This document shows positions 4,350 to 32,000 of a DNA stretch of 32,000 nt, piece after piece. Below the pieces are notes generated by a model, which searched no databases, was not told where the DNA came from, and saw nothing but the letters and a program-made list of their open reading frames with translations. Made by a program: the position numbers and the translations under genes. Source of the DNA: Parasynechococcus marenigrum WH 8102 (GTDB lineage: Bacteria > Cyanobacteriota > Cyanobacteriia > PCC-6307 > Cyanobiaceae); NCBI RefSeq assembly GCF_000195975.1, contig NC_005070.1, positions 960,001 through 992,000 on the forward strand, given 5' to 3'. The stretch's first letter is position 1. Every line of letters starts with the position of its first letter.

Positions 4350-4361
4350 TGCCTGCTTGAC

Positions 4362-5546
4362 GTGCACACGTCCAAGCATCCTCAATCTTTTTTCCTCTCC
4401 CTCAACATTTTTTCTCCCGTGTTCGTCTTCTCAGCCAAGCCACGTCTCAGGCTCCTGCTTCTTGCCCTGCTTCTGCTCCCTTGCACTGCAGCCCGGCCTG
4501 TCATGGCCCATGGATCCCATGGGGGAGGTGATGAGGAACTTGAGGCTGGTGAGTTTGATTTCACACCTCTGATCACCATCGAAGGGCATGGTGGGTTTGA
4601 AACCAACTTGGATGACAACCCCAAGCATTACGCCATTGATGGATTGTTTGGTGGCGTGTTCCAGTGGGGCTTGGGCAACGGCGGAAGTCTCACGGTTGAA
4701 GCCGCCGTGGGACCTTCAGTGGTGTGGGGTGAGGCTGAACATTTTTACGGCAAGGTGCATGTTGATGATGATCATGGCCATGAGGATGAGGACCATCACG
4801 ATCATGCTGATGCTCATGCTGGTCATGAGGACGATCATGATCATCACGACGAACATGCTGAGGATGATCATCACGACCACGAAGAGCATGCAGATCACGA
4901 CCATCACGATGACCATGACGATCATCACGACGAACATGCTGAGGATGATCATCATGAGCACGCAGAGCATGCCCACGATGAACACGGGCATGGCGATCCT
5001 GAGCTGAAACGAACGGACGTTCGTGGTTTCTTCAGCGTGCGCTATGAACCCAATGATCGCCTCAGCCTCACGGTGGATTGGATGCCCTATTACGTCACCA
5101 GGGATCAAGGTGACGATATCCAGGGTTTAAAGAATGAGTTGGGTGCTGAAGTGGTTTGGGCGCTTGGTGATGGTGACGTTGACTTCGCGCTGGGTGATGG
5201 TCTCGAGAACATTCTCGATGGCGTTTTCCTCTCCGTGATGCACCGTCAGGGATGGGAATCCGATGGCACCTGGATGGGCAACTACACCGATCCCCGCCTG
5301 GGCGTTGGCTTCAACATTGACCAGATCAATGTCACCATCGATGCCGGGCCTCGTTTCTACACACCTGGCAGCTATTCAGGTTTGAGTCAGCGGACTGACT
5401 TTGCCGGTGAAGTGGAAGTTTCGATTCCCGTTGGCGATGCCGTTCTGTTCGCCCATTGGAAGCCGACCTACAGCCCGGATGATGCTCCTGGCTGGGGTGA
5501 AGGATGGCAGCACCACCTCGGCACGGGGGTGACCTTCAGCTTCTGA
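4362..5546 (+). CDS. Exported His/Asp/Glu-rich protein with beta-barrel-like flanks and a C-terminal Phe; putative outer-membrane metal-binding protein
   Basis: The ORF starts 13 nt after the znuA stop, at GTG 4362 or GTG 4419. Signal peptide KPRLRLLLLALLLLPCTAARPVMA. An ~80-residue stretch (nt 4758-4997) consists almost only of H, D, E and A. The remainder shows alternating-hydrophobic strand patterns and ends ...HHLGTGVTFSF, an OMP-like terminal aromatic. Confidence 0.7.
   Translation: MHTSKHPQSFFLSLNIFSPVFVFSAKPRLRLLLLALLLLPCTAARPVMAHGSHGGGDEELEAGEFDFTPLITIEGHGGFETNLDDNPKHYAIDGLFGGVFQWGLGNGGSLTVEAAVGPSVVWGEAEHFYGKVHVDDDHGHEDEDHHDHADAHAGHEDDHDHHDEHAEDDHHDHEEHADHDHHDDHDDHHDEHAEDDHHEHAEHAHDEHGHGDPELKRTDVRGFFSVRYEPNDRLSLTVDWMPYYVTRDQGDDIQGLKNELGAEVVWALGDGDVDFALGDGLENILDGVFLSVMHRQGWESDGTWMGNYTDPRLGVGFNIDQINVTIDAGPRFYTPGSYSGLSQRTDFAGEVEVSIPVGDAVLFAHWKPTYSPDDAPGWGEGWQHHLGTGVTFSF
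4839..4954 (+). repeat. In-frame 81-nt-spaced direct repeat inside the His-rich coding region
   Basis: GATCATCACGACGAACATGCTGAGGATGATCATCA occurs at 4839-4873 and again at 4920-4954, encoding DHHDEHAEDDHH twice. Surrounding codons are variations on GAT/GAC/CAT/CAC/GAA/GAG. Confidence 0.8.
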
Positions 5547-28787: not shown

Positions 28788-29504
28788 ATGTTTTCTGGCT
28801 GGACCTCGATGCAACGTGATCGGCAGCCCGAAGTCATGGATCAGCCGGGGCTCGATCCAGCCGAGCACGACCGAGCCCTTCAAGGTCTTCGTCGTATCAA
28901 TGGAATCAGTCGCTGTGTGCCAGGGCTGTTTCGTCACGTAGAGGCGCTCGCAGGTGAGAGTCCAGCCACTCAGCTGAGCGTGCTTGAGCTGGCTTGCGGA
29001 GGTGGCGATACGGCGATTGAGCTCGCTGCGCTCGCCCGTGGACGCGATTTGGATGTATTGGTTCAAGCCTGCGATCTGAATCCTGAAGCGGTGCGTCTCG
29101 CCCGCCGCAATGTGGCCAGATCAGACAGCAACGTTGGTGTGTTTGTTGCTGATGCTTTGGACCCGTCCGAATCCAAACAATTTGACGTGGTGTACTGCAC
29201 CCTTTTTGTTCACCATCTCGATCCACCCGATGTGGTGCGCCTACTCAAAGGGATGACAGCTAGGGCTCGTCGACTTGTGATTGTCGATGATCTAATCCGC
29301 AGCCGTCTTGGGTATTCCTTGGCTTGGATGGGTACACGACTGCTGAGTCGATCCTGGGTGGTTCATCACGATGGTCCACTGTCGGTGAAGGGAGCTTTTA
29401 CTCCTTCAGAGATCCTGGACCTCGCCTCTCAAGCTGGATTGCACGATTGTGTCTTGGAACGGACCTGGCCCGAGCGCTACCGGCTCTGCTGGAGACCCCA
29501 CTGA
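28788..29504 (+). CDS. Class I SAM-dependent methyltransferase
   Basis: A start at ATG 28788 (or 28809) gives ...RDRQPEVMDQPGLDPAEHDRALQGLRRIN, followed by motif I VLELACGGGD and DVVYCTLFVHHL. The track ORF start (28707) lies in non-coding-looking AT-rich DNA. The stop TGA at 29502-29504 is 1 nt before the next gene. Confidence 0.8.
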   Translation: MFSGWTSMQRDRQPEVMDQPGLDPAEHDRALQGLRRINGISRCVPGLFRHVEALAGESPATQLSVLELACGGGDTAIELAALARGRDLDVLVQACDLNPEAVRLARRNVARSDSNVGVFVADALDPSESKQFDVVYCTLFVHHLDPPDVVRLLKGMTARARRLVIVDDLIRSRLGYSLAWMGTRLLSRSWVVHHDGPLSVKGAFTPSEILDLASQAGLHDCVLERTWPERYRLCWRPH

Positions 29505-29505
29505 C

Positions 29506-30651
29506 ATGCAAAGCAATTGGGATGTCATCGTGATTGGGGCAGGAGTTGCCGGAGGCTTGGCAGCCTTCGATTGTGCAAATCGCGGCCTGCGAGTTCTGCT
29601 CGTCGAAAAACGGTCCTTCCCTCGCTGGAAGGTGTGTGGTTGCTGCTTTAACGCCAATGCCTTGGCAGCTCTGACTGCCACAGGCCTCCCGAACTTCTTT
29701 GATGATCAGGGTGCCGTGCCCCTCGATCAACTTCGTCTTGGTTGGGGTGGCAAGTCCCTCAAGCTTGAGTTGCCAGGCGGTTGGGCACTTTCGCGGGAGC
29801 GCTTCGATCAGGCTTTGGTCAACGCGGCTGAGGCTGCTGGTGCAACATTGCGCTTTCAAACCGGTGCCGTGCTTGAGGAGAGCACTCCCGATGGGCGAAT
29901 GGTGCGATTACGACCGCCGGGTGATGCTCCCATTGAACGGATCAGGGCCCGTGTGGTTCTCGTTGCAGCCGGACTGCAGCACCAGGTGATGTCCCCCTCC
30001 CATGCGGCCAGCTCGAGGAGCACCCCGGAATCGAGGCTTGGGGCAGGCTGCCTCATCAATGATGACGACAGCTCCTACGAGTCAGGGGCGATTCATATGG
30101 CCATTGGCCAGCGTGGCTACGTCGGCTTGGTTCGACGTGAGGACGGTGCTCTCAACCTGGCGGCCGCTTTCGACCGCGCTGTGGTCAAGTCGTCTGGCGG
30201 TGTGGCGCGTGCGGCACAACTTGTTCTGACTCAAGCCGGCTTCACTTTGCCTCGAAGATTGGAGTCGTCTCGTTGGCAATTAACTCCTGCGCTCACCCGT
30301 CGTGCTGGTTTGTTCGCAGGGGATCGCTTTTTGTTGCTTGGCGACGCGACCGGTTATGTGGAACCGTTTACCGGTGAGGGTATGGCGTGGGCTCTCGCCG
30401 CTGGGGCGGCGGTTGCTCCATTTGTGGAGGAGGCTCAGGGTGAATGGTCAGCGGATCTCGAGCGACGCTGGCAAAGGAGGTTGGTGGATCTGACGATCAG
30501 CCGTCAACGGGTTTGCAGTGTGTTGTCGACGTTGTTACGACAACCGCTCACCACAAATGCGTTGTTCAACCTTGGGTGCCAATGGCCTGCGATCCCGCAG
30601 CGCATTATTCGCAGCCTCAATCGGGTGTCTCCTCTGATGGCGAGTTCCTAA
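29506..30651 (+). CDS. FAD-dependent oxidoreductase / flavoprotein monooxygenase-like
   Basis: A start at ATG 29506 gives MQSNWDVIVIGAGVAGGLAAFDCANRGLRVLLVEKR, a GxGxxG dinucleotide fold. A later LLLGDATGYVEPFTGEGM motif is typical of the FAD-binding GD motif in this family. Confidence 0.85.
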   Translation: MQSNWDVIVIGAGVAGGLAAFDCANRGLRVLLVEKRSFPRWKVCGCCFNANALAALTATGLPNFFDDQGAVPLDQLRLGWGGKSLKLELPGGWALSRERFDQALVNAAEAAGATLRFQTGAVLEESTPDGRMVRLRPPGDAPIERIRARVVLVAAGLQHQVMSPSHAASSRSTPESRLGAGCLINDDDSSYESGAIHMAIGQRGYVGLVRREDGALNLAAAFDRAVVKSSGGVARAAQLVLTQAGFTLPRRLESSRWQLTPALTRRAGLFAGDRFLLLGDATGYVEPFTGEGMAWALAAGAAVAPFVEEAQGEWSADLERRWQRRLVDLTISRQRVCSVLSTLLRQPLTTNALFNLGCQWPAIPQRIIRSLNRVSPLMASS

Positions 30652-30654
30652 ACC

Positions 30655-31743
30655 ATGCCTCTCATCCTTCATGGCATTGGTACTGCGGTGCCATCTCGGC
30701 GACTGAGCCAGGCAGATGCCGTGCAGGTGGCACATCGCATCAATGCCGAAACCCCTGAGCAGGTAAGGCTGATGACACGCATCTATCAGAAAACCAAGGT
30801 GCTCAGCCGTGGAAGTGTGCTGCTGGAGAAGGATGGAGACGATGGCACGATCCAGGAGCGTCTCAGTTTCTACGGCGAAGAAAGCCCTGGTACCGCCGAA
30901 CGGATGCAGGCGTTTGAGGATCATGCCGGTGAGCTGGCTCTTGAGGCCGCTGCAAAGGCGCTAAGCGATAGCGATATCTCAGCCACGGCGATCACGCATC
31001 TCGTCACTGTCAGTTGCACCGGTTTTCAGTCACCAGGTGTTGACCTTTTCTTGATTGAAAAGCTTGATCTATCGCCGAGTGTTCAGCGAACCCATATCGG
31101 ATTCATGGGATGCCACGCTGCGCTGAATGGCTTGCGTGTTGCCCACGCCTTTGCGGAGATGGATCCCAAGGCTGTTGTTCTGCTGTGCGCTGTAGAGCTT
31201 TGCAGCCTCCATATGGCTTATGGCTGGCACCCAGAGCAGGTTGTTGCCAACGCTTTGTTTGCCGATGGGGCGGCTGCCGTTGTCGCCTCCGTCAATCCTT
31301 CCCCTACACATCAGACCTTGGCGTTGCGACGCAGTGGCTCGATGGTGATTCCAAACAGCTCAGATCTGATGCACTGGGAGATTGGCGACCATGGTTTTGC
31401 GATGGGCTTGTCGCCCCTTGTTCCGGAAACGGTTGGCGCTGCCTTGTTGCCCTGGTTGCGAGATTGGCTCAAAGAGCAGGCCATTGATCTTGAGGCGGTG
31501 ACGAGCTGGGCTGTTCATCCAGGGGGCCCCAAGATTCTCTCGACCTGTGCCGAGGTTTTGTCGCTGGACCCAGGCCTACTGCACGAGTCCAGAGGAATAC
31601 TTCAGGATCACGGCAACATGTCATCCGCAACGATCCTGTTCATCCTTGAAAGGTTGAGGCGGCGGGAATGTTCCGGTCCTTGTCTTGCACTGGCCTTTGG
31701 CCCTGGGCTGAGTGCTGAGGTAGCACTTTTTGATTTTCAATAA
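30655..31743 (+). CDS. Type III polyketide synthase (chalcone synthase superfamily)
   Basis: 362 aa. Catalytic Cys context HLVTVSCTGFQSPG, His context WAVHPGGPKIL and Asn context QDHGNMSSATILF together make the Cys-His-Asn triad signature. Starts 3 nt after the flavoprotein stop. Confidence 0.9.
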   Translation: MPLILHGIGTAVPSRRLSQADAVQVAHRINAETPEQVRLMTRIYQKTKVLSRGSVLLEKDGDDGTIQERLSFYGEESPGTAERMQAFEDHAGELALEAAAKALSDSDISATAITHLVTVSCTGFQSPGVDLFLIEKLDLSPSVQRTHIGFMGCHAALNGLRVAHAFAEMDPKAVVLLCAVELCSLHMAYGWHPEQVVANALFADGAAAVVASVNPSPTHQTLALRRSGSMVIPNSSDLMHWEIGDHGFAMGLSPLVPETVGAALLPWLRDWLKEQAIDLEAVTSWAVHPGGPKILSTCAEVLSLDPGLLHESRGILQDHGNMSSATILFILERLRRRECSGPCLALAFGPGLSAEVALFDFQ

Positions 31744-31892: not shown

Positions 31893-32000
31893 TGCCTTGC
31901 CCCTTTCCTTCAGCAGAATCACTGCATTGATGGGGAGCATGGTGGCCGGAGCTGGGGTGAATCCTGCAGATCAGCGCTGGGGTTTCTGGCCGCTGCTGCC
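31893..32000 (+). repeat. Boundary repeat copy C, presumably the functional copy
   Basis: Best-conserved copy of the segment. It runs to the window edge with an open reading frame. Confidence 0.75.
31930..32000 (+). CDS. 5' end of an unidentified gene continuing beyond the window (MGSMVAGAGVNPADQRWGFWPLLP...)
   Basis: ATG at 31930 (a second ATG at 31939) opens a frame with no stop up to nt 32000. The same 5' end is found as truncated relics at 13072-13173 and, decayed, at 28338-28442. The W-x-x-WPL(L/V)P motif reminds me of DUF4336-type cyanobacterial proteins, but that is memory only. Confidence 0.4.
   Translation, partial: MGSMVAGAGVNPADQRWGFWPLL

Follow-up and report, generated by a model that had tools for sequence, protein, structure and literature searches.

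The chromosome of Parasynechococcus marenigrum WH 8102 (WH8102 below) carries, within the 32,000-nt stretch analyzed here (NC_005070.1, positions 960,001 to 992,000 of the forward strand; hereafter the window), the operon hidABC, which encodes a methyltransferase, a flavoprotein, and a type III polyketide synthase (PKS) and lies immediately upstream of the core gene for a DUF4336 protein. An original prediction, made from the sequence alone, had described the trio as a cassette with its own boundary repeats that is mobile as a 3.4-kb unit. We consider it likely that hidABC is the gene-nearest module of an array that repeated integration has built at the start of the DUF4336 gene, apparently a docking site at which mobile modules accumulate and are swapped between strains.

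The starting point for this reading is the nature of the repeats. The gene after hidC encodes a 397-aa DUF4336 protein (CAE07509) that starts at position 31,930 and runs past the end of the window, and contigs with an identical HidC continue through DUF4336 into the core genes DUF760, lepB, menD, menB, glgA, murF, and glmU. Repeats A, B, D, and C (Table 1) are all versions of the DUF4336 upstream region and its first ∼25 codons; they are displaced 5′ fragments of a core gene, that is, attachment-site scars common to all modules of the island. The repeat search had joined the segments 13042−13091, 28345−28394, and 31900−31949 in one family (D12), and BLASTN, by which D matches both B and C, extends the last two to the full extents given for D and C, the latter reaching the window end. 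In the near-identical contig L065, the C region matches D of the window at 74% identity over 96 nt (E = 8e-9). The original prediction was therefore right that the boundary repeats are real and wrong that they are the cassette's own ends. We regard the probability that the repeats reflect chance similarity or an assembly artifact as vanishingly small: D is just 74−78% identical to the other copies and related contigs (L002, L074) break at the repeats, but the BLAST and profile scores are significant and the same architecture is present in the complete genomes of WH8017, WH7803, MIT S9451, MIT S1220, and KORDI-52.

Read from left to right, the window holds a module of three small genes ending in A and a ∼90-nt arm that we call F, a cupin/psbA module ending in B and the arm F′, a giant-protein/glycosyltransferase module ending in D, an AT-rich spacer with hidABC, and finally the intact DUF4336 gene. 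The cassette was said to lie exactly between D and C. It does lie between them, but flush with neither, as a 341-nt spacer separates it from D and ∼141 nt separate the hidC stop codon from C. The spacer is the AT-rich DNA that the prediction had placed ahead of the cassette, with a GC content of 0.416 vs 0.597 for the whole window.

Table 1. Positions of the features discussed (window coordinates unless a contig is named)
Feature	Position	Strand	Description	Identity
Repeat A	11101−11160	+	core only, ∼11120−11155; followed by arm F, 11153−11241	
Repeat A + F	11101−11241		boundary of small-gene and psbA modules	
A−B module	11309−12834	−	truncated Cupin_5 gene (11309−11629) and psbA (D1; 11755−12834)	
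Repeat B	13027−13150	+	DUF4336 upstream region and codons 1−24; followed by arm F′, 13145−13232	
Repeat B + F′	13027−13232		boundary of psbA and giant-protein modules	
B−D module	13280−28351	−	RTX protein, 2230-aa repeat protein, TPR/glycosyltransferase genes, 81-aa open reading frame (ORF); absent from L065	
Repeat D	28340−28446	+	degenerate DUF4336 upstream region and codons 1−25; putative attachment core ∼28412−28449; left boundary of hid module	
AT-rich spacer	28447−28787	.	between D and hidA	
hidA	28788−29504	+	S-adenosylmethionine (SAM)-dependent methyltransferase, 238 aa	CAE07506
hidB	29506−30651	+	flavin adenine dinucleotide (FAD)-dependent oxidoreductase/hydroxylase, 381 aa	CAE07507
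hidC	30655−31743	+	type III polyketide (alkylresorcinol) synthase, 362 aa	CAE07508
hidC−DUF4336 intergenic region	31744−31929	+	contains the motif TTTTGTGC, fusion point to the 3′ half of F elsewhere	
Repeat C	31885−32000	+	intact DUF4336 upstream region and first codons; ATG at 31930, putative core from 31969	
407-aa protein gene	L024:8654−9877 (−); L145:10001−11224; L148−L153		putative recombinase	

The DUF4336 fragments recur well beyond WH8102. In a survey that took one genome per species and recovered the DUF4336−DUF760 pair in 62 picocyanobacterial loci, the Synechococcus loci contained 38 extra partial N-terminal DUF4336 copies, of which as many as three precede one intact gene within 10 kb (WH 8017, MIT S9451, and MIT S1220). 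The breakpoint falls within codons 23−25 in 37 of the 38, mostly at codon 25 (...WPLLPL), and the one other copy is truncated at codon 15. Arm F follows directly after 32 of the 38, and an F profile finds 43 copies, every one of them upstream of DUF4336 and in the same orientation, with no copy in the Prochlorococcus loci. F carries paired boxes (TTGTCCCT twice and GTGCAAC twice). We also considered F as a structured RNA; RNAalifold gave −4 kcal/mol without covariation, and Rfam returned no family at gathering score in the window or around A and B (chance-level hits only, at E up to 1), so that a putative protein-binding DNA site is preferred. The first ∼15 residues of the intact DUF4336 proteins fall into several unrelated types in a mosaic that does not track the phylogeny of the rest of the gene.

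We note two side observations from the survey. In L016 (10001−10491) and L065 (3457−3739), successive DUF4336 5′ copies enclose mini-modules of ∼290−490 bp that carry no cargo and are made up solely of F, a brief spacer, and the 5′ fragment that follows; these may be element remnants or nonautonomous units consisting of the attachment site (attP) only. Contigs L018 (CAXQPR010000123.1) and L060 (NYVG01000051.1), which carry a Synechococcus DUF4336 locus or a 5′ copy with F, are binned in metagenome-assembled genomes labeled Salipiger bermudensis and Gammaproteobacteria and are probably binning contaminants.

A candidate enzyme is encoded next to the site in other strains. In MIT S1220, the gene directly upstream of and divergent from DUF4336 encodes a 407-aa protein, adjoined by genes for a helicase and a small terminase subunit (terS). 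Its homologues form 38 clusters, all annotated as hypothetical (e.g., KR52_11040), and in each context examined (eight or more) the gene lies 96−114 nt from DUF4336, always beside the same DUF4336 5′ type. The cargo that accompanies it varies: hsdMSR, NucS-like, and RmuC genes in KORDI-52; small phage-like genes and an HTH_17 (Xis-like) gene in an MIT S9509-like contig; helicase, HTH_17, PLD, MZB, and MmeI-type genes in two further contigs; and AAA helicase and Mrr genes in three more. A pseudogene fragment of the 407-aa gene lies inside another array. By contrast, ten ORFs beside partial copies elsewhere, considered as possible integrases, proved by Pfam to be ordinary cargo (P450, DUF1254/1214, Coq4, 2OG oxygenase, and others).

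The 407-aa protein has no sequence match in Pfam, PHROGs, or the PDB. Its AlphaFold model (mean pLDDT 81.6) was compared with the PDB by Foldseek, and the top 12 structures are all tyrosine recombinases, including XerH, IntI, Cre, lambda Int, and Brujita Int, with TM-scores of 0.24−0.49. Tyrosine recombinases have a two-domain fold and the catalytic set R-K-H-R-H/W-Y. In the 407-aa family, R241, K272, R357, and Y390 are invariant, as are the motifs LTGARG, DSKRGRNR, RTLRHNAARR, and RTYADHH. In an exhaustive profile search of 1.84 billion proteins, the family comes to just 39 representatives; PF00589 is weakly matched by two of its distant members (7.9e-6). Fold and motifs together make this orphan protein a probable tyrosine recombinase. 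The intergenic arm between its gene and DUF4336 carries boxes of F, both direct (TCCCTG..TGTCCCT) and inverted, GCCCAGTTGCACAA being the exact reverse complement of TTGTGCAACTGGGC in F. Boxes in this arrangement would look like arm-type sites that flank a core on both sides, and F is a candidate for the arm sites of the recombinase.

Taken with the shared breakpoint, these features suggest to us how the island may have been assembled. A copy of the DUF4336 upstream region with codons 1−25 closes each module, and F opens the next one, except at D, an arrangement that would follow from repeated site-specific integration into a core of ∼38 nt (GAYCARCGCTGG..TGGCCGCTGCTGCC, also written GAYCARCGCTGG..CTGCTGCC), where the incoming DNA would supply a new DUF4336 5′ end and displace the old one. 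The 407-aa protein, encoded ∼100 nt upstream of DUF4336 in other strains beside varied defense or phage-like cargo, would be the likely enzyme. The hid, psbA, and giant-protein/glycosyltransferase modules of WH8102 would then be recombinase-less cargo or flanking segments, and lineages could exchange them within composite elements, with the help of a recombinase acting in trans, or through homologous recombination between the ∼200-bp repeats. We lean, by a small measure, toward a broader proposal, namely that the DUF4336 5′ end is the attachment site of a family of integrative elements that is confined to marine Synechococcus and has not been described before, which is driven by the highly divergent 407-aa recombinase and uses an attP of ∼215 bp, and in which serial integration and composite excision build an island that moves psbA, cell-surface, defense, and hidABC modules between clades. 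The attP would comprise a P′ arm, the 38-nt core inside codons 13−25, and the 90-nt F arm.

Several observations weigh against this explanation. The window contains no homologue of the recombinase (tblastn with the 407-aa family) and no excisionase, and with no recombinase present the WH8102 array consists of recombinase-less modules. None of the contigs examined carries both the 407-aa gene and hidABC, the IMG/VR viral contigs yield no match to HidC or to the recombinase profile, which also removes phage carriage as a candidate, and the collections searched contained neither an excised nor a circular form. The assignment of the enzyme comes from fold and motifs, and the two usual catalytic His residues are replaced in the family by R354 and by Ser/Thr. 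At the left end of the hid module, D is degenerate; it aligns collinearly with positions 1−92 of a combined core and F profile (E = 0.0013), but F alone gives no significant match to the D flank (E = 0.87), which was accordingly rejected as an F arm. The left end may thus no longer be competent for recombination, being degenerate and without a recognizable F, although a decayed F arm may stand at the start of the spacer. Intact genes most often carry the same 5′ type that is fused to hid (type 1), a type without clear arm boxes. The stretch that distinguishes WH8102 from L065 begins at F, stops at the upstream edge of D, and does not fall on attachment cores. Finally, four lineages keep D, the spacer, and hidABC as one block irrespective of the DNA on its left side, which a simple model with one element for each repeat interval fails to explain.

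The missing recombinase and the L065 indel that ignores the cores also favor a different reading, in which modules are shuffled purely by homologous recombination between the DUF4336 5′/F repeats of ∼100−200 bp and the conserved flanks, for example after DNA uptake, with no dedicated recombinase. The repeats are long enough for RecA, and L067 and L068 contain a fusion, at the 8-nt microhomology TTTTGTGC, of the hidC intergenic region with the 3′ half of F, beyond which lies other cargo. We take this as a serious contender that is nonetheless unlikely. Against it stand a breakpoint within codons 23−25 in nearly all 38 copies from many strains, the conservation of F and the recurrence of its internal boxes in inverted form beside the recombinase gene, and the strict association of that gene with the site in eight or more contexts.

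The distribution of hidABC bears on whether it moves. We counted presence in 16 Synechococcus species-representative loci with at least 4 kb of sequence upstream of DUF4336 and in ∼25 Prochlorococcus loci. Within 10 kb upstream of DUF4336, hidC occurs in one of the 16 (WH7803), and hid is at the DUF4336 locus in none of the ∼25, so that the cassette is accessory at this site, as predicted, rather than universal. Where it is present, its nucleotide identity to WH8102 is 86−95% while that of the flanking core genes is 69−86%. In L078/L079, for example, hidA, hidB, and hidC are 95, 94, and 88% identical, compared with 80% for DUF4336, 86% for DUF760, 77% for lepB, and 70% for menD; L069 and L070 display a similar contrast, and the 75-nt 5′ fragment is 93% identical. 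The third-codon-position GC content (GC3) of hidABC is 0.54−0.60 vs 0.73−0.82 in flanking core genes.

The order of modules is also permuted. L065 is 99% identical to the window over hidABC and lacks ∼11250−28345, that is, 17 kb of other modules, and its path leads from the small genes through an A-like core with F and a 90-nt spacer to D and hidABC. In L079, psbA followed by a partial copy and F precedes hidABC. In L069, L072, and WH7803, hidABC is followed by a partial copy with F and then by the small-gene module, the reverse of the order in WH8102 and L065. In the L087 clade (HidC ∼77% identical), hid occupies a different locus, between MFS/saccharopine-dehydrogenase and deaminase/OprB genes. 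D is conserved together with hidA at 98% in L065, 82% in L072, and 78% in L085.

These comparisons support the notion that hidABC is accessory and horizontally exchanged, and to that extent the predicted mobility is upheld by the identity contrast, the permuted order, and the second locus. Autonomous movement as a 3.4-kb unit is something we infer at most, since the module has no recombinase, D is degenerate, and L065 keeps hid without the other modules. Because the hid-linked 5′ type is the one commonest on intact genes and lacks arm boxes, the hid segment may not have been a self-contained element at first; it may have begun as chromosomal DNA flanking the site in a donor and moved later, either inside a composite element or through homologous recombination.

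The same features could be read as signs that hidABC is an old, vertically inherited neighbor of DUF4336, lost from most lineages, around which only the other modules were inserted. A native chromosomal sequence would be expected to carry just such a type 1 5′ end without clear arm boxes, hid stands beside a DUF4336 5′ copy in many strains, its module has no recombinase and a degenerate D, and the other modules are all that sets the near-identical contig L065 apart. We judge vertical inheritance unlikely, however, given that hid is more similar between strains than the adjacent core genes are, that its position relative to the small-gene module is permuted, that it lies elsewhere in L087 and has an atypical GC3, and that L067 and L068 join its intergenic region to half an F arm and other cargo.

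The gene trio itself offers nothing new: it is a hierridin-type (hidABC) alkylresorcinol operon already catalogued and published for the genome of this model strain. The proteins HidA, HidB, and HidC and that of the next gene, DUF4336, are identical to WH8102 CAE07506−CAE07509, and the order methyltransferase, oxidoreductase, PKS is the published order hidA > hidB > hidC, which confirms the hierridin-type cluster of the prediction. The ORF listing likewise bears out its three tightly packed, co-oriented genes, with gaps of 1 nt (hidA−hidB) and 3 nt (hidB−hidC), and annotation with Pfam and NCBIfam models agrees with its enzyme identities. HidA is a class I SAM methyltransferase (Methyltransf_25, 5.9e-15) that passes the NCBIfam equivalog PRK06202 (308 bits vs a cutoff of 243), a family still named "hypothetical protein" by NCBI. 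HidB matches FAD_binding_3 (3e-11) and the geranylgeranyl-reductase superfamily (2.6e-31; its 109 bits fall under the model cutoff of 158.8 bits). HidC contains both chalcone/stilbene synthase domains (Chal_sti_synt_N, 2.2e-27; Chal_sti_synt_C, 2.6e-20), and its closest solved structure is the Mycobacterium tuberculosis alkylpyrone synthase PKS18 (1TED, E = 4.8e-50), to whose motifs fmgC, aiHpGG, and fGNm the residues Cys153, His288, and Asn321 align, so that the catalytic triad, which had been named as a check on the prediction, is intact. A terminator-like hairpin lies at 31710−31728, within the 3′ end of hidC, and the hid promoter is presumably in the spacer. This spacer is 78−98% conserved between strains (L065, L072, L085), including a block at ∼28500−28560; the window carries a 1-nt indel relative to these three, and a possible small minus-strand ORF (...ESRKLIEGH.VELHHELNRHTEQKKHIRHKNFKLSISEYN) does not keep its frame in all of them.

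The chemistry of the WH8102 enzymes is inferred from homologues, namely, Cyanobium HidABC and planctomycetal operons. HidC would condense a long-chain acyl thioester with malonyl-CoA and cyclize the product to a 5-alkylresorcinol, which HidA would O-methylate and HidB would hydroxylate on the ring to yield a hierridin-like methoxylated alkylphenol. Recombinant HidA from the hierridin cluster of Cyanobium sp. LEGE 06113 methylates 5-pentadecylresorcinol. The WH8102 cluster has the same three enzyme classes, order, and tight packing as that cluster, with the Cys-His-Asn triad in its PKS. Clusters of this kind are reported as most prevalent among picocyanobacteria, and their PKSs are reported to form a hidABC clade (Martins et al. 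2019; Larsen et al. 2021). Larsen et al. 2021 grouped the picocyanobacterial enzymes with HidC (clade 3.222), and WH 8102 was among the genomes that they mined, its enzyme appearing in their active-site alignment beside those of BL107 and WH 8103. Doré et al. count hidABC among the accessory gene clusters of cold-water Synechococcus, and the cluster is reported to be enriched in populations of cold water. As a genomic setting, the array of displaced DUF4336 fragments goes unmentioned in the published descriptions of hidABC that were consulted.

More distant relatives share the operon layout to varying degrees. Planctomycetal operons with the same gene order, whose proteins are 48−55% identical to the cyanobacterial ones, include a PKS that makes C15/C17 alkylresorcinols in a heterologous host (PMC10896814); they differ in phylum, in a G. 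maris methyltransferase that appears to C-methylate, and in having no DUF4336 context. Metagenome loci L098−L144 (HidC 46−53% identical) nearly all have methyltransferase and oxidoreductase homologues upstream in the same order. The Streptomyces griseus srsABC operon, to which the trio had been compared, resembles it only in its enzyme classes (type III PKS, methyltransferase, flavoprotein hydroxylase); the WH8102 order is methyltransferase-FAD-PKS, and the srs products are alkylquinones. The srs methyltransferase and flavoprotein hydroxylase act on alkylresorcinols.

It could be argued from such relatives that the operon makes alkylquinone- or alkylpyrone-type lipids, for instance, membrane or electron-carrier polyketide quinones like those of srs or mycobacterial systems, and not hierridins. 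The best solved-structure relative of HidC is an alkylpyrone synthase, HidB belongs to a geranylgeranyl-reductase/UbiH-like flavoprotein superfamily, and alkylquinone-forming homologous systems are noted in the literature (PMC10896814). This seems to us unlikely, because gene order and family fit hidABC, with its HidA active on 5-pentadecylresorcinol, because the planctomycetal homologues of the operon produce alkylresorcinols, and because Larsen et al. place the picocyanobacterial enzymes with HidC; a hierridin-like product is the prediction we retain.

The remaining modules of the window are of different kinds. In the 2-kb A−B module, the Cupin_5/DUF985 gene is truncated (it matches profile positions 2−61 of 139) and psbA is full length. 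In L010 psbA immediately precedes the DUF4336 gene, and in L079 it immediately precedes a partial copy, which places one of the psbA copies of marine Synechococcus in this integration hotspot. The B−D module includes the 2230-aa protein (13979−20671, minus strand), with six 396-nt tandem repeats and about ten 168-nt repeats (motif DIDGDGDLDAFIG), adjoined by the 209-aa RTX calcium-binding protein (13280−13909, minus strand). In MIT S1220 (L061), which belongs to a distant clade, RTX genes and homologous N-termini are found after partial DUF4336 copies; there, too, the site thus holds a module of this type. No tRNA was found by ARAGORN in the window or in 18 related loci, which rules out a tRNA-seeded island. 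Outside these modules, the ORF at 4350−5546 (plus strand), which adjoins a ZnuA homologue (3315−4349) and whose protein weakly matches ZIP transporters, contains a His/Asp/Glu-rich low-complexity stretch at 4758−4973, encoded by overlapping, imperfect CAT/GAT-rich repeats spaced 9−24 nt apart, always in multiples of 3; this is probably a metal-binding region. Elsewhere, a 467-aa island protein of Synechococcus MIT S9451 (L016:908−2311, minus strand) combines a ubiquitin-family domain (8.6e-20) at its N terminus with SWM_repeat and DUF4114 domains after it, and a ubiquitin fold is unusual in a cyanobacterial surface-type protein.

The closest described architecture is that of the dusA-specific islands, whose insertion into the start of a protein-coding gene exchanges the gene's own 5′ end for one carried by the island (Farrugia et al. 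2015, PMC4482086). As in those islands, the displaced 5′ remnants persist here as direct repeats with the intact gene (A, B, and D with C), 37 of the 38 partial copies share the common breakpoint of independent insertions, and the putative integrase adjoins the regenerated target in L024, L018, and L145−L153, though not in the window. The differences are that the target is DUF4336, that the recombinase is an orphan without a Pfam match, and that tandem arrays of up to four copies occur, with a conserved arm of ∼90 nt after the fragments. Tycheposons of Prochlorococcus and tycheposon-like insertions at tRNA-Phe in Synechococcus (Hackl et al.; Grebert et al. 2022) are similar in their iterative integration at one site, their modules split by partial target copies, and their hsdMSR, helicase, and terS cargo, and in that recombinase-less remnants and flanking DNA become mobilizable; they target tRNA or tmRNA genes, whereas the boundaries here are made of DUF4336. 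A DUF4336-targeted integration system was not described in the literature searched.

These findings offer a testable explanation for the patchy distribution of hidABC among marine Synechococcus and show how one genomic island of WH8102 is assembled, as a tandem array at a protein-coding attachment site. They also point to a putative dedicated recombinase family among proteins currently annotated as hypothetical, and the ∼200-bp site together with this recombinase could serve for targeted insertion in Synechococcus. If the proposal holds, the undescribed element family would be a protein-gene-targeted counterpart of the tycheposons. To our knowledge, marine picocyanobacteria lack the usual gene-transfer machinery, and each newly defined integration system therefore helps to explain their large flexible genome.

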